From the NCBI GenBank assembly GCA_958009085.1, contig OY253676.1:868001-932000 (forward strand): a stretch of 64,000 bases of DNA, given 5' to 3'. Below are positions 1,968 through 60,643 of the stretch, in pieces. Source of the stretch: Protoeuglena noctilucae. Taxonomy: Eukaryota. Position numbers and translations under genes: made by a program. Position 1 is the stretch's first letter; each line of letters opens with the position of its first letter. A model generated the notes under the pieces. The model searched no databases and was not told the DNA's origin. It was given only the letters and a program-made list of their open reading frames with translations.

Positions 1968-3109
1968 ATGGGAGCTGGGGACCCCGACCAGGTGGTCTTG
2001 CAGCTGGTGACCTCCACCAATCGTCCGTACAACACCCAGCTCCTCGCGGATAACCTCCAAACGCGCGGTATCAAGAAGCCCGCCGTCCAGCGCGCGCTGG
2101 ATGCCCTGGTGGACCAGGGGAAGATCCTGTGCAAGGTGCACAGCACGCGCAGCATGCTCGAGGCACCTGCTCGCCGGGACGGCGTGTAGGCCCTTGAAAC
2201 TCACACATTGTGATCCAGAGACTACCTTGCGTACCACGCAGGAGTGCGGCAAGTCCAAGATTTACTATCCGCCCCAGGACAACCTGCCTGTCCTGTCCGA
2301 GGCCCAGTCCGCCGACCTGAAGGCGAGCGAGGCCGCGCGCGCCCGTCGGTTCGAGAGTCTAGAACACGTTGGAGGTGCTCAGCCCAGGATGGGGCTTCCG
2401 GCTCGCAGGCGAAGCTGTCGGAGGCCAAGACTGCCGTGGCCCTCGGCCAGGAGGAGCTCAAGCGCTTGCAGGCCGAGCTCGCGAGCCTCTCCAGCAGTCT
2501 TTCCGTCGAGGAGCTCAAGAAAGAGGTGGAGCGCCACAAAAAGGAGGTGCGGATCCTGCGCGCGGCATCGTTTGACGGGGTGCAGGGCGCAGCTGCACCG
2601 AGGCTCGTTGTACAGGATACCTACCCTAGAGTGCACACACCGAGCCCACGTCCGTCTCCCGCTCCCTGCGATGTGGCACGCAGGTCGCGGAAATGTCGGC
2701 CAAGCTGAAGGGCCTGCAGACGGGCGTGCGGCTCGTGACGCCCGAGGAGCGTCGCAAGGTGGAGCGGCAGTTCGAGGCAGCGCTCGAGCACTGGCGCAAG
2801 CGGAGGTGAGAATTTGAATCGCAGCAACCTCGGCTGTGAGCCTGCCCGGGGACCCGTAAGGACGCCGGGACGAGGCGCGGTGTTGGTGTGAGCCCATGGA
2901 ATCGGGTGTCCCTACCAAATAGCCTGTCGACGAGCCTGCCTCCCAGGTCCATGTTCCGGGCAGTGTGGGATCCTATCACGGAGAACATGGACAAGAAGGA
3001 GTCTGCGCTGATGGAGGAGGTGGGCATTGAGAATGACGACGCGGCAGGGGTGAGCCTCGCTGACATGGCGCGGTTGGCACCCGGGGGCAACAAGAAGCGC
3101 AAGGCATGA
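1968..3109 (+). CDS. HOP2: Homologous-pairing protein 2 (HOP2/TBPIP/PSMC3IP), 5 exons
   Basis: Winged-helix NRPYNTQLLADNLQ...K|ECGKSKIYYPPQD, a coiled coil, then WRKRRSMFRAVWDPITEN...LMEEVGIE. Exon frames join correctly; intron 2 has a GC donor at 2323. Confidence 0.92.
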
Positions 3110-3439
3110 GGAACAGCAACGATCGGGTTGGTTTCATTCATGTGGCTGTACTTGCAGCCGCACAGCTGCGATGGCACCCCGCCGCATTGCGCAACGCGCA
3201 ACGCCGCCCGCACCCACCGGACCCAGCCTGGCCGTGACAGCGGCATTCTTGCCGCGTCTCAGAGTGGCCCAATGCTGCCCGTTTCCACATTGTTGTACAT
3301 GCATATGTTGTAGACCACCTCGTAACTTTAAACTACCGTTCTGACGCACGACGCGTGTCGGTGCACCCCCATCAGACCGCCTCCACCGCAGTGGCCGCGA
3401 GAGCGAGGGCTACCTGGGTCAACCACATCATCCGGGATC

Positions 3440-6400
3440 TCATATCAATCCCGCCTTGCGCTTGGACCCCATCGGCGCCGCCATGCTCAGCATCCTCTCC
3501 ACGGCCTCGTCATAAGCCCGCCTTCCCTCAAAGGCCTCCCCCTCGGTCCCAACCCCCTCGCCCCCCTCCCACGAACCCTCTGCGTCCGTCCCCTCGCTCC
3601 CCTCCTCGTCCCCGCCCTCCCCGCCCTCTCCGCTCCCTTCGCCAGAATCCTCGAAGTCGTCAGAATCGTACTCGGACCACGCCACCTCCTCGGCGTCGGA
3701 CGATCCGCTCCCCGACTCAGCCCCTGACTCAGCGCCCTCGGCCGGGCCGTCCATCGATGCTGGCAAACTGATCAACCCCTCGCTGCCCTCCGGACCGTCC
3801 AGCCCATCCGCCCCACCGCCCTCGCCCCCACCGCCTTCGCTCCCCGCATCCCTTGCCCCGCCCCCGCCCTCCCCACCACCCCCGCCCGCCACGCCCTCTT
3901 CCCCACGATCCGAACCCCAAACTCCACGCCGTCTCATGTCCCCAAATTGACTAGTAGTACTGTCCAACCCGGGATGAGCGCCCACGCCTGCCTTCATACG
4001 CAGTGCAGCGGGGGACGGTCCCGGCGACCCCACCCCCGGCACCAACGACCCCCCCGTCTCCCCGAGGCACATTTCCGGGGCCACCGCCGAAGCACGAAGC
4101 ACGCTGCGGCCCGTGTCCCGGCCCACCGCGCCACCGCCCGGCGTCTGCACGCGAACCGCATCACCCTCCGCCTCACCCGCAGGGGCGACACTGGGGGGCA
4201 AACCCACCGCAGCGGCGGGCGAACCCGTCACTACCCCAGGTGCCACCGGCTCAGGTTGGCACGGTATGCCCCCGGTTGGGTATGACCCCTCCGTACCCGC
4301 GCCCTTGTCCGGGAGCGGACTGCCAATCACAGCCAGCGCGCCGTCCCCAGCCCCCGCCCGCCCCTCTGTGGCCGCAAACGCCGGCGCTTCTTTGTTTGGG
4401 GAGAACGCCGCGTGTGGCCAGGACCCGGATGCCCACAGGGACGGGCGGATTCTGGCGGGCGATGCCAGAGTGCCCTGTGCCAGTGCGCCTGCCAGAGACG
4501 GGAGATTGACGCGGATGCTCTCCGGGATCGCCGCCACGGTGCGGGGACTGCGGGGGGCCAACGCACGAGGGGTGGGGCGATGGTACAAGATGGCGACACG
4601 ACATGTCGAGGCGGAGCTCAGCAATGCGTGTGGGTTGATAAGAAGACCTCACAAAGCATGTGTGTTCAAGTTGCAGCCGACCAGCCCTCACCTCAGCACG
4701 GCCGACTCCCCCACCAGCTCGTCCTCCCCAGGACCCCCCTCTCCCTGCGGACCCACCCACGCGCCGCCTCCGCCCCCCGACCTTCGCGTTTCTGACATCG
4801 TCCCCGATGACAGAAACACCACATCGTCCCCCTCCAAGTCGCCCAGCCCTCTGGGCCCCTCCCCGCCTGCCCCATCCCCCTGCTCCTCCCTGCTTGGAGC
4901 ATCGCCCCCAGCCACCCCAGCACCACCCTGTGCACCGCTGTGGCCCTCCCCGTCCCAACCCCCACCCGCCCCACCCCTATCGCGATTCACCGCTGCGTCT
5001 GTTGCAGATCCGGCCACCTGCGCAGCCCTCGCCCGCCTCCTCAGCTCCGCCAGCCCAACGTCGGAGTCCGCGCCCGATGAGTCCAGCGACGGAGCCACGT
5101 CGCCTAAAGCATCGCCATCCGCTACCTCAGATGCACCACCCGCCAGGATCGACGCGCTACCTGCCACCTCCGATGCACCACCTATCACCTCCAAGGCACC
5201 GCCCGCGGCATCCAACGCCCCCAGGCTGTCCCCAAGGTCCAAAGAGCCACCGCTATTCATGCTGACCAGGGAGAGGTGACCAGATAAGTCGAGAGGGGAG
5301 GCAGAGGGTGCAGAGGGGCCAGATGCTGCACTACCATCCCTGCCCCTCTCGCCCGCTTGCGCTGCACTGCCATGAGGCAGATGCCCTGTCTTGCGATCTG
5401 CTGAGATCGCCCCAACCCCTCCAGCATCTTCCGCGACGCTGACCTCTGCTGCTCCCTCTCCAACTGCCCCACGTTCCGACCCCGCGCCCGCCAACGTATC
5501 CACCGCCGTCGCCCACGCCTCCTCCCCACCGTCTCTTGCCCTGTCCCTCTCCCTAAGCTCCCCATCACCGTCCCATAGCGCGCCCTGCGCCATCCGCGCC
5601 CTCTCAACTCCTTCATCACCACCCCAGCCCGCACCCCGCACCGCCCCCACCCCACCCACAGCCCCACCCTCCCCATCCGACTCCTCATCAGATGCCGTCG
5701 CCGTCGCACCCAGCGTCGTCACCGTCACCTCCCACATCGCACGCACCAACTCCCATTGGTCCTCCGGCCGCCCACGCGCCACCACCGACCGCAGCTCTGC
5801 AACCGCTCCTTCCTCCCAGGCAGTCATGCCACGCCCGGGCACGATGCCAGCACCGTACCGACTTCTGGGTGTGCCTGTCCCTAAGCACACGCCCGAAGAC
5901 CCCACCGCACGTGGGCTGGCCTCGCCCCTCCCATCCCTCGGCTCCCTCGCACCCCTCCCATTATCTGCCTTGGTCGGGGGCCTCTCAGGCCCCGCACCAC
6001 GCTGTCCTTGCGTGGCAGTCGGGGCAGCCACCTTGGGCTGCACAGGCGATGATGGTGACGCGTCCCCCGCACCCCACGCCCAAGCCCGCACGCCCCCAGC
6101 CTTCCCAGCCCCACCCTCGCTCGCCGCATGCCCCAAAGGCAACGCCACGCTGCCTGACAACACCACGTCACCCTCTTCACTGCCGCCCTCGCCCTCGCCC
6201 TCACCCACACCCCTCCCGCCCCTCTCCCCCAGCCTGGCACCCCCCGTGCTGTCATTGGGGCTCCCCTCACCGAGCCCCGCGCGCTCCTGGATGGGCGGCA
6301 GCGCCGTGCCACCCATGCCGGCGTGGGCGCTCCCGATGCTGTCGTCACGATTATAGTCAATCATGACATCGGCATCGGTCATGTCGGCCATACCAACGCC

Positions 6401-9214
6401 AGCACTGGACTCCCGCACTGTGTTAGGATCGAAAGGCCCGTCGCCTTTGGCCAGAGCCATCGAGTCCCGCGGGGCCAGGCTCTGTGCGGCAGAGCTGGCG
6501 AAGCTGGCGTGCGGGGACAGGAACTGAGCCCAGTCGGAGCGATTGGGCCGAGCGGCAGCGGGGCCAGGGCCATGCTGGGAGGGGTCGTCGGTGTCGTCTG
6601 CGGCCCTGTGCTGCAATGCGCTGTGCGGACGGTCATCCTGCGGGTGAGGGAAGGGTCGACGGGTTCCGAGGCAGGGGTTGTGGTTGCACGGCAGGACTTG
6701 TCATAATGTCAATGACATGGGGCTACGACCGTGAAGCTATCCATGATGACTACTCTCACATACACCGCTAGCGCTACAGCTAACACTACTGGTACCAATG
6801 CCCTGCTCAACTCCCATCCGCACCGTCAGCACAACATCAGCACCGGCCCAACACCTCCATCCCTCACCATAGACCTCGGCAGCCGGTCGAGCGTCGCGAA
6901 CGCCGCCGCCGTCCCCAGCTCCGCGGCCGTGGCACCCAGGCGGTCCTCCAGGATGCTCTGCTGCGCCTTGCGGACCCCTCGCATCTGCGCCTCCGCCAGC
7001 GCCTCCGCCGGGGGCTGCTCCTGAGCCTCTTGCTCCTGGAAAGGAAGGGTCACGACTTGTGATAACGAAGTATACTACTATGCATAGTACTGGTGTAGAG
7101 TTACCTCAGAGTACCTCTATGTATCAACAGCAGCTCCCAGCAGCAACCGCCACGCCCCTCTCCACATGCCACCACCCCCACCTGCTGCCGTATCCGCGCC
7201 ATCTGCCGCCCCCGCTTGGCCTCCATCTCCCTCGCCATCCACCGCCGTTGCGCCAGCTCCCCGCGAAGGTCGAACAATGCCGCCCGTGCCTCCCAAGTCT
7301 TCTTGGCTGTCCGCACGCTCATCGTCGCCACCGTCCCGCGACGCGACCCAGTCGACGCCAGCCGCTTGCCCGTCCGCGCCCCCGCACCGGCACCTGCGCT
7401 CGCGCGCCCTGCATCTGCCTTCCCCGCCCCGCCCGCCCCGCTCTCCGCAACCGACGGCTTCCTAGTCCCACGCCCCACGTCCTTTGTCGCCTCCTCCTCG
7501 TGGCCCAAGTCGATCTGCGCCCGCCGCGCCCGGCCCTCCTCGGCCTTTGCCGCGCTCGACCCCGTCGGCGCCAGGTACGACGTCGCGGGGCGGTCGCCGC
7601 CGCGCGGGGGAGTGCTGGCCGCCCGGCGCGGGGCCCGGCGCTTGCGGGGCCGGGGCGCGGGTGCAGCCACCGCCTCCCCGTCACCCCCTGCTCCCTCGAT
7701 GCGTGAGGGCGGCCGTGGTTGCGCCAGGTACGCCAGCCCCGCCGGTGCGCCACCAGGGAAGACGTGCCGCGCCAGGCCGGCCGCGGCGGAGGGGCTGAGC
7801 GTGGTGAGGTAGGCCTCCATGCACTCGCGCACGTATCGCGCTGACAGCGCCTGCTCGCACGTGGGCCGGGCCGCGGGGTCCGGCTGCAGGAGTAGCATCA
7901 CGAGGCGTCGGAAGGGAGAGCTGTAGTAGGTCGGGAGCGGCTCCCATTCGTTGCGCATCACTTTGACGACCAGTTGGGGCAGGCCCGAGGCGTCAAAGGC
8001 GATGCGGCGGGCCGCCATTTCGTACAAGACGCATCCCTGTGGGAGAGTAGAGGTGGTTATGAGTGTTAGGCAGGGAGAGATGGAGATGGCAGTGGCCCGA
8101 TTGGGGCACAATTAAGGCGCGCTGCTGTCTCTATCTGAGAGCCGAAGCGTCAAGCAAGCAACATGCGGCTGAGTCAGAGCCAGATTGGCCTCACCAGGGA
8201 CCATATGTCGCTGGCGTAGGTGTAAGGCCTCCCGGCCATGACTTCAGGGGACATGTAGTAGGGCGTGCCCATAACTGTGGTGGCCATGTCATGGGAGCTC
8301 TCCAGCTCCCGCCCCACGCCTGCATATAACTCAGTGAGCGAGAGTGGTCGTAAGGGAGTGGCGTAACAGACAGGTTCTACGGGAAGACAGGTGGCATCGG
8401 CCATGGACTGGCAAGGCATGGCTACGCAGTGACAACGTGGCAGTGAGAAGGGCGTGGGCGTTGGTTAGGGTTAGGGCGGCTGACGCACCTAGGTCTCCGA
8501 GCTTGATGGTGCGGCGGGACTTGGTCAGGAAGATGTTGTCGGGCTTCAGGTCCCGGTGCATGATGCGGCGGGAGTGCAGGTGGTGGAGGGCAGCCAGGAT
8601 CTGGCAAAACCACTGCATGATTTGCCACTCCGTGAAAACCTCCACCACCGGCTTGTGGCCCCCGGCCTGCGGGAACTCACGATCGGACGCTCCGCAAAGC
8701 AGGTTTGATGAGCATATGTGCGCAGAAGGAACAGAAACGCGGGGAGGGATGGAACTTGCCTTGGCCTTCAAAAGGCTGGCCAGTGTGCCGCCCTCGCAGT
8801 TGCCCATCACGATGCAGATCACGTTCTCCTTGTCGCGATACCAGCCCTTGAAGCTGACGAGGTTCCGATGGCTCCCGGCCTTGTACAGCAGCGCAATCTC
8901 GTTGTAAACCTGCGAGGGGCGCGAGAAGCGAGGGATGCGTGCGGCTGTCTCATGCATTGCCTCGCATGGAGAGTTCACTGTGAAGCTTTGATCGAAAAGA
9001 GACAGTCGCGACTGCTGCGACAGCCCCGCGCCGCCCCGCTCGGCACCTGGCGGTCCCCTTTGGAGCCCGTGGGGGCTCGGTCGACGCGCTTGATGACCAC
9101 AGACGGGTCCGACGAGCACGAATAGACCGTCGCAAAACTCCCGCTTCCCAGGACCTTGCCCAGCGTGTAGGTGTCCTTCAGCACGCATTGCGCGGCGACT
9201 TCCGCCGGGCGCAT
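3440..9214 (-). CDS. NIMA-related (NEK/CNK-type) Ser/Thr kinase with a very long low-complexity C-terminal tail; 3' end approximate
   Basis: GSGSFATV, VVIKRV, IVMGNCEGGTL, QIMQWFCQI..HRDLKPDNIFL..KLGDLG, GTPYYMSPE, YTYASDIWSLGCVLYEM spread over exons 9214-7180. The tail lies in ORFs 4688-6616 and 3440-4624. Confidence 0.85.
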
Positions 9215-58338: not shown

Positions 58339-59244
58339 TTAATTCAGTGCAGTCACTGCTGCCACCGCAGCTCCCGCCGAACGGCCCTTCTGCCGGCTCG
58401 CCTGCGTCACCCGCTTCAGCACCACCGTGAGCTTGTAGCTGGCCCAGATCTTGAAGGGGAACGTGACGGGCTTGATGACTGCCCGGATGCCGATGCTCTC
58501 CGCAAGGGCGACGCTGGCGCGTTGCGGGTCGCCGGGTAAACGCGCCAGCCACTTCGCCGACTGCTGCATCAGGTAAACCACGCGGCGATGTCATGGCTTT
58601 CATGTATGATAACCGCAAGAGGCGCTGGAGCCGTGCGCGAGTTTGCTGTCGCAACAATCGCATGCGTGCGCATACTCGCCTGCTTTGCTTTGGCCGTTGC
58701 GTCGGTGAACGCCCTTGCGACGACATTGTTGCCACCTGATAGCGCCGCACCGAACGTTTTGGACGGCTGCCAGCGGTAGCACAGCGCCCACTGTGCCACA
58801 CAAGGGAGCCGTGCACGTCAAGGCTCCTGGCCACGCCCCATGCCGCGGCGACCCCCCAGGGGACTCCGCAGGGCGCGTGTCCCGGGCTGGCGTGCGTGCT
58901 TTCGCGCCTCACCAGCGTGCCCGCAAGGGCCAGACCCACAACTTCGTGCAGCACAAACGCGGTCGGCACGTCCCGAGCGCTGAGTCCCGCCTCCTCAAAG
59001 ATCTTTCCATACCTGCGCGCGCGGGCAGGAAGGACCCTGGGCAGAGATGGAGTCGCAGAGGCCGTTTATGTAGCCCCCCCTCACCCGGTCGCCCTCACTT
59101 TTTGATCGCTCGTGCCAGCTTGCCCTCCTGCTCCTTTGGCGGGTCGTCAGCAGGGCCCGGCCCGGTCGACTGCGCCCGCCCCCTCTCGCCGGCGCTCCCT
59201 TTGCCCGCCATCAGCCCGTCCAAGCGCAGCTCCTCCTCCTGCAT
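58339..59244 (-). CDS. Small membrane-associated protein, possibly DUF1279/FAM210-like (start uncertain)
   Basis: YGKIFEEAGLSARDVPTAFVLHEVVGLALAGTL|WALCYRWQP...VALAESIGIRAVIKPVTFPFKIWASYKL; GC donor at 58679. Confidence 0.55.
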
Positions 59245-59463
59245 GCACGCAGAGCCTCTGCTGATGCTGGGTGCTGCAGCTACGCGCCGGGGTCGTCGCT
59301 CGACCGGCACCGTCTGTTGCTGCGGACCCCATCGTCATTTGGTGTGGCACGCGCGCGTCGATACCACGCCCTTCGGACGACGGTATGCACGCGCGGGGCA
59401 GCGGCCTTTGGAGGGCGACAAAGCAGCCCAGAAAGCAGCGTGGCTGGCTTCGTGTGGGAGGAC

Positions 59464-60137
59464 ATGGTGACGTTGGAAGCTACACTAGATGACATCACGC
59501 CCGAGGTACTGGCGCATGGTGAGGGTTGCAACTGGCTCATGGCTGAGGGACGTGAGCGGCAAACGGACGGCCAAGAACGGCAGGCACCCGGCCTCCGTCG
59601 CAGCCATGGAAGAGCTGCTCCGGTGCGGGGCGCGGGACGTGGTGGCTGTGCCAGGAACGGGCAAGAAGGGGCGCCCGTGCCACATTCTCAGCGTCCTGTG
59701 CCTGCAAGGTGACATCCAGCCCAATGCCGAGCACGAGCCGTCTAGGGCCAGCGGGGCAGCAATGAAAGCCTCTTTCCGCTCGCGCAGAGGAGGAAGGGCG
59801 CATGATAGAGAAGATATTCCGGGAGACGACAACGCTGGGGGTCCGCGCCATCCCCTGTCGCCGCGCATCCCTGCCGCGCGAAATGCGCCGCTTGCAGGTG
59901 CGCATGGGCAGCGGCGGGGCGGATACCGACCACCAAGTACGCGTCAAAATCGCTCGCCTGGGGGGAGAGGTTGTGAATTGGAAGCTGGAGCACGACGACC
60001 TCGCGGAGATCGCCCGCGTCACCCGGCTGCCGCTCAAGGCCGTCGCGGCGCGCGTCCAGGCAGCAGCATGTCACGCGCTTGGGCTCGGCGTGGAGGACGT
60101 CCGAGATGAGGACGAGACGAGATTGCCCCGCCAGTGA
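59464..60137 (+). CDS. larC: LarC C-terminal (LarC2-like) domain protein, nickel-pincer cofactor nickel-insertion family; the true start may be upstream
   Basis: LEATLDDITPEVLAH|AMEELLRCGARDV..GKKGRPCHILSVLC|..IFRETTTLGVR..R..LPR..VRVKI..VVNWKLEHDDL. Introns 59519-59603 and 59709-59787 are GT-AG and restore the frame. Confidence 0.85.
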
Positions 60138-60255
60138 ACCTTGTGCCAGCTCGCCCAGAACAGGCCCTGCATCGGCGGGCCTCTGCCGACAATCGCTTGA
60201 AATCGGCATCGCTGTGGGATTTCTGCCAAAGACAGCGTGCACTCGGTTTCGGTGT

Positions 60256-60260
60256 TGTAA
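60256..60260 (+). terminator. Polyadenylation signal TGTAA downstream of the LarC-like gene
   Basis: About 120 nt after the stop at 60137. Confidence 0.45.
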
Positions 60261-60643
60261 GGGAGCCAGCCGGGCTAAGCTAGGTCTCCAGGGCCGCGCG
60301 CTTCTTCAGAACCCCATCTGATTATCATCGGGTGCCGTGACGTGCGGGACGACAGGTGGGCCGCGTCTGGGCTCTTCAGCGGGTGCACACGCGCCCCGCG
60401 CTTGCCTGCGCCCTCGGCCCGCGCACTGCATGAGAATATCGTCGCGCGGACCCGCTGGCATTGGGCCCGATGCGGGTGGTGCCCCCAGCGCGCGCGTCCA
60501 CCCCGCACCGCATGCTGGCTCCCGCGCCTATCTCCTCGACGGTCTCGTAAGGCGGCCGCAGCCATCGTCGAGAGGCGTGTTGTCCTGATTGTCGTCCCCG
60601 CCGCGTTGCAGGCTCGCCTCCTTCCTGCGTCATGAGGGCGGGG

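Follow-up and report, generated by a model that had tools for sequence, protein, structure and literature searches.

A stand-alone, intron-bearing LarC2 gene in a eukaryotic nuclear genome and its relatives in green algae

Introduction

The cofactor nickel-pincer nucleotide (NPN) and LarC, the protein that supplies it with nickel, have so far been investigated almost exclusively in bacteria and archaea. In bacterial LarC, the LarC2 part forms a hexameric core with cytidine triphosphate (CTP) bound at the subunit interfaces, and LarC2 has been proposed to CMPylate P2TMN, after which the LarC1 part inserts nickel (PMC13510736). Here we describe a gene for LarC2 without LarC1 in a 64,000-nucleotide stretch of eukaryotic DNA, hereafter the window (Protoeuglena noctilucae assembly GCA_958009085.1, contig OY253676.1, positions 868,001 to 932,000). 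An earlier note, made from the letters of the window alone, had called an intron-containing, stand-alone LarC2-like gene at 59464..60137. The frame, the profile matches and spliced RNA contigs now bear that call out. The gene is eukaryotic, carries introns, is not linked to LarC1 and falls within a conserved green-algal family.

Cyanobacteria widely have LarB, LarC and LarE, mostly without LarA (PMC11796402), and lar genes are reported to occur in some unicellular eukaryotes, the only tested eukaryotic enzyme being a LarA homologue from the oomycete Phytophthora that is a gluconate epimerase (PMC11770544). No eukaryote taxa are given in the supplement of the latter.

Several described proteins can be compared with the window protein, in part through its closest relative, P0009, a protein of 199 amino acids that is 54.6% identical to it over 141 amino acids and is encoded on metagenome contig L002 (72% GC). 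The LarC2 of Lactiplantibacillus plantarum (6BWO, 6BWQ, 6BWR) has the same domain and motif set (sequence match to P0009, E 3e-15) and a fold that the window protein is predicted to share, and is likewise translated from its own reading frame. In L. plantarum, however, programmed frameshifting between adjacent open reading frames (ORFs; PMC13510736) links LarC2 to LarC1, whereas the window gene has no LarC1 within 64 kb, nor was any LarA, LarB or LarE found there. The window gene also differs in having introns, in residing in a eukaryotic nucleus, in a glycine in place of methionine before KKGRP, and in an eight-residue loop insertion. Full-length LarC of Moorella thermoacetica (12BI and related; EC 4.99.1.12) contains a homologous LarC2 core (P0009, E 1.4e-16), and the chemistry that its LarC2 half would share with the window protein is the presumed CTP binding and CMPylation. 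Unlike that enzyme, the window protein has neither LarC1, with its histidine-rich nickel site and its acidic pocket containing E104, nor the linker. The window protein cannot alone be a cyclometallase.

LarC2 is also a separate polypeptide, of 160-200 amino acids, in larC1/larC2 pairs of Bacillota and in a Heimdallarchaeota metagenome-assembled genome (MAG). LarC1 lies directly upstream in 5 of 11 bacterial loci with a short LarC2, whereas the window gene has no nearby lar gene. The uncharacterised protein MK0293 of Methanopyrus kandleri (3C19) is a stand-alone protein of about 180 amino acids with the LarC2 fold (P0009, E 2.4e-13); like the window protein it carries a loop insertion before the V-x-V-K strand, but it is archaeal. 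Named eukaryotic relatives are CLOM_g19019 of Closterium sp. NIES-68, a protein of Closterium sp. Yama58-4, the EukProt entry Chlat1 and MMETSP transcripts. These belong to the same family, stand alone at 169-209 amino acids, match PF01969 only over about positions 238-374, and are annotated as hypothetical. Their identity to P0009 is 36-46%, they belong to a different subclade, and several carry basic N-terminal extensions of 52-64 amino acids that the window protein lacks.

A LarC2 gene with two spliced introns

The gene comprises the following features, all on the plus strand.

59464 to 60137, plus strand: LarC2 gene frame, from ATG 59464 to TGA 60135-60137 (sequence and spliced RNA contigs)
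59350..59463, plus strand: 5' untranslated region, minimum extent (RNA contig X1 record 2, unbroken from 59350)
59464..59518, plus strand: exon 1, with the start codon and the LE-x-x-LDD-x-x-PE motif (local LarC2 profile positions 2-21, weak when taken alone, E 0.15)
59519..59603, plus strand: intron 1, 85 nt, GT..AG, GTGAGG...CGCAG (joint in an RNA contig of run X1)
59604..59708, plus strand: exon 2, with GARDV and GKKGRP (PF01969 and local LarC2 profile matches)
59709..59787, plus strand: intron 2, 79 nt, GT..AG, GTGACA...CGCAG (joint in an RNA contig of run X2)
59788..60137, plus strand: exon 3, with FRETTTLGVR, the 8-residue loop insertion, VRVK, KLEHDD, an acidic tail and TGA (PF01969, NF052512, local profile)

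Evidence for splicing came from RNA contigs of four marine metatranscriptome runs (X1-X4), all from one study, that were placed on positions 58900-60500. A single X1 contig joins 59350-59517 to 59603-59670 across intron 1, and a single X2 contig joins 59662-59706 to 59786-60127 across intron 2. Both match exactly and both introns have GT..AG ends. Each joint is thus present in one of the four runs, and an X3 contig (59765-59964) is unspliced across the border of intron 2 and exon 3. The spliced frame of 510 nt encodes a protein of 169 amino acids. Its coding sequence has a GC content of 66%, and of 78% at third codon positions, the latter typical of coding sequence in the window, which has a GC content of 67.7% overall.

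All six C-terminal LarC signatures listed in the earlier note are present and in order in this protein (LEATLDDITPE, GARDV, GKKGRP, FRETTTLGVR, VRVK and KLEHDD), and the profile search that the note had proposed gave matches above the family cut-offs. On its own, exon 3 reaches 53 bits with NCBIfam NF052512 (nickel_LarC2; cut-off 50) and 59.5 bits with Pfam PF01969 (Ni_insertion; cut-off 22.1), where it covers positions 300-374 of 375 with E 4.2e-16. In the Pfam scan of window ORFs, PF01969 was matched at positions 263-300 in the exon 2 frame (E 5e-8, 32.9 bits) and at positions 296-374 (E 1.4e-16), and the 169-residue protein as a whole spans about positions 243-374. The relatives P0009 and P0161 score 123.7 and 115.1 bits in the profile test for the LarC2 domain. 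A local hidden Markov model (HMM) of 149 positions, built from 79 bacterial LarC2 domains, is tiled in order by the three exons, at positions 2-21, 22-59 (E 2.2e-7) and 55-142 (E 3.4e-24).

The protein consists of the LarC2 part only, its N-terminus lying three residues before the LE-x-x-LDD motif. The LarC1 domain, with its histidine-rich nickel site and acidic pocket, was not found in it, so it is not a complete LarC (TIGR00299, EC 4.99.1.12). The earlier note's claim that the N-terminal half of LarC is missing from the locus also stands, since the best LarC1 HMM match in the window has E 2.5 and the RNA contig joins no upstream exon.

Within the LarC2 part, conservation is high. Residues typical of the family, namely DD, G-A-x-D, KK-x-R-P, E-T-T-T-L-G-x-R, R, K and E-x-x-D, are present. 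Of 27 columns conserved to 85% or more among the 79 bacterial domains, the window protein retains 25 and the bacterial domains themselves 23-27 (median 26); six of the 27 (ETTTLG) are conserved by construction, as the bacterial loci were gathered with the pattern ETTTLG and the bacterial sample is biased accordingly. The two deviating motifs noted earlier differ in how widely they are shared. The glycine before KKGRP recurs in P0009, in P0038 and in five further sequences of the hit set (P0044, P0067, P0082 and P0101 among them), and is also found in some archaeal-type sequences, whereas the leucine of KLEHDD is private to the window protein. The loop insertion before V-R-V-K, eight residues long in the window protein, is four residues long in P0009 and in several archaeal LarCs.

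A eukaryotic family of lone LarC2 proteins

Sequence comparison places the window gene as one member of a conserved lone-LarC2 family across green algae. A HMMER scan of exon 3 against 1.84 billion representatives returned 295 proteins at E <= 0.001, the closest being P0009 (51% identity), and a word search with exon 3 alone gave eight matches. The best prokaryote matches to the window LarC2 are 43-49% identical, and none is closer than about 50%. A profile (A3) built from sequences of eukaryote type matched 1467 proteins at E <= 1e-10. Among the 120 A3 matches listed, the first 20 are all 169-253 amino acids long and include two complete MMETSP transcripts, the Chlat1 entry and the Closterium sp. 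NIES-68 protein, with Closterium sp. Yama58-4 further down. The code Chlat1 we take to denote Chlorokybus.

In all, there are about 13 eukaryote-type relatives, nearly all of them stand-alone proteins of 150-250 amino acids. Several unnamed members show in-frame intron read-through; they come from Tara data or from contigs as long as 2.36 Mb. The lone form is kept in relatives that are 36-55% identical, streptophyte algae and marine picoalgae included. No description of a eukaryotic lone-LarC2 family was found in the literature searched, a search that did not extend to key older LarC papers.

The trees are consistent with one eukaryotic clade. FastTree, applied to 186 rows, unites all 13 eukaryote-type rows in a clade that contains no bacterial row (support 92). 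The IQ-TREE results, which are quick-search trees, split the eukaryote-type rows into groups of nine and three rows. One eukaryotic clade is nevertheless not rejected by the approximately unbiased (AU) test (p 0.482), and in a 93-row set with archaea, a tree that keeps 13 such rows in one group surpasses the tree of the unconstrained quick search by 44.6 log-likelihood units (p-AU 0.903).

Two more specific affinities were considered. The earlier note had proposed a phylogeny against cyanobacterial and other bacterial LarC, which bears on a cyanobacterial (plastid) origin; the eukaryotic rows lie apart from the cyanobacterial clade in the trees, yet the AU test does not reject a clade of eukaryotes and cyanobacteria (p 0.425). 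An archaeal affinity of the window's subclade has a FastTree support of 89 for a 14-row set and of 25 for the direct join, is weak in IQ-TREE (63), and was not adopted; the tree that unites all eukaryote-type rows is better.

One relative is informative about ancestry. P0144, a fused LarC fragment of eukaryotic appearance with 288 amino acids on a 999-nt ENA contig, groups with the window protein, P0009 and P0038 (SH-aLRT 91), and keeps the end of LarC1 (local LarC1 HMM positions 220-254, E 9e-9; Pfam profile from position 206). After the LarC1 end come a low-complexity linker of some 70 residues, rich in histidine, glutamate and alanine, and then LarC2 with a 22-residue loop insert. Nothing in the prokaryote genomes exceeds 39% identity to P0144. 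Because this protein is still fused and lies in the same subclade, the lone eukaryotic LarC2 forms descend from a whole LarC.

The N-termini of family members differ. Only 3-19 residues precede the first motif in the window protein, in two Closterium-type members and in P0190, whereas Mamiellales-type members, the Chlat1 entry, P0009 and P0038 have N-termini of 52-87 amino acids rich in arginine, lysine, serine and alanine. The presence of basic N-terminal extensions in some members and their absence from others suggests that the proteins may act in different compartments. A separate observation concerns P0067 (293 amino acids), in which LarC2 (PF01969 positions 245-374) is combined with the C-terminal part of Ala_racemase_N (YggS-like), either as a fusion or as a gene-call artefact.

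Predicted fold and assembly of P0009

The LarC2 fold combines a ferredoxin-like N-terminal part with a C-terminal protrusion. The AlphaFold model of P0009, disordered at its N-terminus, has a predicted local distance difference test (pLDDT) score of about 97 across residues 45-199. In Foldseek, the model matches LarC2 of L. plantarum (6bwo_A) with a template modelling (TM) score of 0.93 and a root-mean-square deviation of 1.5 A, and MK0293 (3c19) with a TM score of 0.65 at 35% identity. Its N-terminal half resembles trimeric nucleotide-binding proteins of the PII, SbtB and CutA type (TM about 0.5-0.6 over 85-105 columns, 10-18% identity), a likeness at the level of the fold and not of family membership; the only Pfam match was to PF01969.

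P0009 LarC2 is predicted to form a trimer. Three copies of residues 45-199 gave a score of 0.73 against 0.00 for the best control, with at least 94% contact agreement and a pLDDT of at least 89 across the trimer runs. Of the proteins solved as pairs of one chain, 21 of 30 attained the 0.73 mark, against none of 23 solved as single chains. Since the LarC2 hexamer has already been solved, the score may reflect the predictor's memory of that structure.

LarC2 encoded apart from LarC1 in prokaryotes

Support for the idea that LarC2 can act in trans comes from prokaryotes in which the two halves are encoded apart. A LarC2-bearing ORF of <340 amino acids occurs in 11 of 80 bacterial loci. Besides the five with LarC1 directly upstream, two are frameshifted with LarC1 pieces and four are cut by the contig end. 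A Heimdallarchaeota (Asgard) MAG (L172, L174, L176) encodes a LarC2 of 169 amino acids directly upstream of LarB on one contig, and on a different contig a LarC1-only ORF of 443 amino acids with an insert of about 180 amino acids. This unlinked arrangement makes action of LarC2 in trans plausible. Other partner fusions occur as well. A Margulisiibacteriota MAG (L083, L173) has a LarB+LarC2 fusion, and this MAG together with the fusion proteins P0394, P0356 and P0434 gives LarB+LarC2 proteins of 402-403 amino acids and LarC1+LarB proteins of 508 amino acids, each without the other LarC half.

Proposed function and alternative explanations

The explanation we favour, at a probability of about one in two, is that the gene encodes a free-standing, CTP-binding and CMPylating LarC2 oligomer that acts in trans with a separate LarC1 in an NPN-type pathway. 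The algal LarC2 would assemble into trimers or hexamers and, once assembled, would bind CTP. As a free subunit it would CMPylate P2TMN or a very close analogue, and the activated intermediate would be passed to a putative LarC1-type partner encoded separately. The host would thus have a split LarC, and the other genes of the NPN-type pathway would lie elsewhere in the genome.

A number of observations weigh against this explanation. In M. thermoacetica LarC, activity was strongly lowered when the linker between LarC1 and LarC2 was deleted, shortened, stiffened or replaced (PMC13510736), from which it follows that the tether matters in the fused protein. HMMs for partners, built from bacterial loci (67 LarC1, 29 LarB and 15 LarE sequences), gave best E-values of 2.2-2.5 against 1,556 six-frame segments of the window, contig L002 and a further contig, L001, and neither Lar_N nor any other lar family was matched in the 450 of 470 window ORFs scanned with Pfam. 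The absence of partners from 64 kb is weak evidence because the host is a eukaryote. A search for eukaryotic LarB, using a profile of a LarB fragment and longer proteins, found no eukaryote-labelled protein among the best 120 of 7976 matches, all of which are unlabelled or bacterial, with tandem misassemblies as the top four; this search is uninformative. RNA contig depth over the LarC2 gene is low (3-8). An upstream open reading frame (uORF) of 35 codons, running from an out-of-frame ATG at 59385 to a stop at 59492, overlaps the LarC2 start. The substitutions of methionine by glycine before KKGRP and of proline by leucine in the PEYED motif fall at conserved positions. Finally, the fold and oligomer predictions were made on P0009 and not on the window protein.

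Some of these observations would fit a lone domain that has been repurposed, in a lineage where LarC1, LarB and LarE were lost or never present and the LarC2 hexamer works without nickel. The domain could then be a trimeric nucleotide sensor resembling PII, or a CTP-dependent nucleotidyl transferase whose substrate is some other phosphorylated metabolite or the precursor of a different cofactor. Almost every member of the eukaryotic clade stands alone, no lar partner is seen in the window, L001 or L002, the N-terminal half of the model is like PII, SbtB and CutA trimers, the basic extensions vary among members, and fused LarC depends on its linker (PMC13510736). However, conservation at 25 of 27 positions equals that of working bacterial LarCs, where a change of substrate would predict relaxed or shifted constraint; P0144 is still fused to LarC1; and the PII resemblance amounts to a shared ferredoxin-like fold at 10-18% identity. 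Nor need a lone LarC2 mean a new function, since in the archaeal split LarC, with its unlinked halves, LarC2 adjoins LarB. Repurposing is possible but less likely than the favoured explanation. A more far-reaching version, in which green algae, marine picoalgae as well as streptophyte algae, have kept the LarC2 hexamer for hundreds of millions of years and use it without LarC1, as a free CMP-transferase that activates a different pyridinium or some other phosphorylated precursor of a cofactor, or as a PII-like CTP sensor, is conceivable but unlikely.

The low RNA depth, the overlapping uORF together with the lack of an N-terminal extension, the two deviant motif positions and the nesting of the gene in, and antisense to, another gene are also what would be expected of a decaying remnant, a LarC2 left over after a whole LarC lost LarC1 and now transcribed at a low level without function. 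This is improbable given an intact frame over three exons with canonical splice sites in use, the 25 conserved positions kept, third-position GC (0.78) typical of window coding sequence, and persistence of the lone form both in relatives at 36-55% identity and as an intronless syntenic copy on L002. Contamination or misassembly, with a bacterial larC fragment placed in a eukaryotic assembly, might be suspected because LarC is overwhelmingly prokaryotic and the best prokaryote matches reach 43-49% identity. It is effectively refuted, as the earlier note had anticipated, by two spliceosomal introns that are removed in RNA, by flanking genes that are eukaryotic (pinin, KIN17, RCC1, ribosomal proteins, kinases), by a neighbour held in common with an independent metagenome contig, by the lack of any prokaryote match closer than about 50%, and by DNA sequencing runs that contain the whole LarC2 stretch. 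The gene is nuclear and native to its eukaryotic genome.

No paper on the nickel-pincer cofactor in algae was found in the literature searched, in which coverage of LarC was partial, so earlier mentions may exist. If the favoured explanation is correct, photosynthetic eukaryotes have an organometallic pathway for a nickel cofactor, built with a LarC that is split by nature, and the family is the part of it that shows; this would bear on marine nickel demand and on how the cofactor is used in cyanobacteria that have LarB, LarC and LarE but no LarA (PMC11796402). Otherwise the family is a natural experiment on what LarC2 does alone, and repurposing would mean a nickel-independent new function for a domain hitherto described solely as one half of a cyclometallase. 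Both outcomes are directly testable with existing assays.

Translation start and 5' region

ATG 59464, in the context GAGGACATGG, is the likely start of LarC2, because the X1 RNA contig is unbroken from 59350 and the sequence between 59281 and 59399 contains no splice acceptor AG. An upstream coding exon that could supply a transit peptide was considered and is unlikely on the same two grounds. The LarC2 frame is open for about 130 codons upstream of this ATG, without an in-frame ATG.

Two further observations concern this region. A second upstream ATG, at 59264, opens a uORF of 68 codons with its stop at 59470, which also overlaps the LarC2 start; only the ATG at 59385 lies within the RNA-supported 5' region. 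Just before ATG 59464, the frame reads F-V-W-E-D (59449-59463), and this stretch is kept in P0009 and P0038 (W-E-D / W-E-R; L002 1810-1830). Chance, a start codon that has recently shifted, or initiation at a codon other than AUG could account for the conserved W-E-D.

Genomic neighbourhood

Of the window's 470 stop-to-stop ORFs with 90 or more amino acids, 450 were scanned with Pfam, the other 20 lying beyond 60.9 kb, and the matches within this set are to eukaryotic genes only. These are exportin, kinases, ribosomal proteins S11, S13/S18 and L18Ae, RCC1, a many-exon class-III aminotransferase, TACO1, KIN17, pinin, WD40, a Na/H exchanger and a CBS-domain protein. The host is a high-GC marine eukaryote and plausibly a green alga; the named relatives of the LarC2 protein are green algae, and a neighbouring gene was placed no more finely than Eukaryota.

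The features closest to the LarC2 gene are as follows.

59239..59957, minus strand: GC-AG intron of the minus-strand neighbour, 719 nt (joint from 59237 to 59957 in X1 and X4 contigs; exon/intron borders CAG/GCGAGC ... TGCAG/GAG)
59958..60154, minus strand: 5' exon of the minus-strand neighbour, minimum extent (RNA contigs X1 record 1 and X4 record 9)
60256..60260, plus strand: TGTAA, 119 nt past the LarC2 stop, a candidate signal only

The earlier note had placed a divergent gene about 200 bp upstream of LarC2. A minus-strand neighbour does exist, but its 5' exon runs from 59958 to at least 60154 and is antisense to LarC2 exon 3, while exons 1 and 2 and the first part of exon 3 lie within its GC-AG intron. 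The neighbour's frame is open from ATG 60209 across the joint into the next exon. The TGTAA that had been taken to follow the LarC2 gene is present at 60256, but RNA contigs of depth 50-67 cover 60200-60355 and are spliced (GT..AG, 60356-60611) to 60612, immediately ahead of the CBS-domain gene's ATG, which places this TGTAA in the 5' exon of that gene.

On L002, the P0009 gene is intronless and stands head-to-head with a homologue of the window's minus-strand neighbour. Because the two loci share this neighbour, the LarC2 gene is native and its position conserved. Downstream of LarC2, L002 also carries a 1347-amino-acid ORF with a subtilase domain (2691-6731), of which no counterpart was seen beside the window gene.

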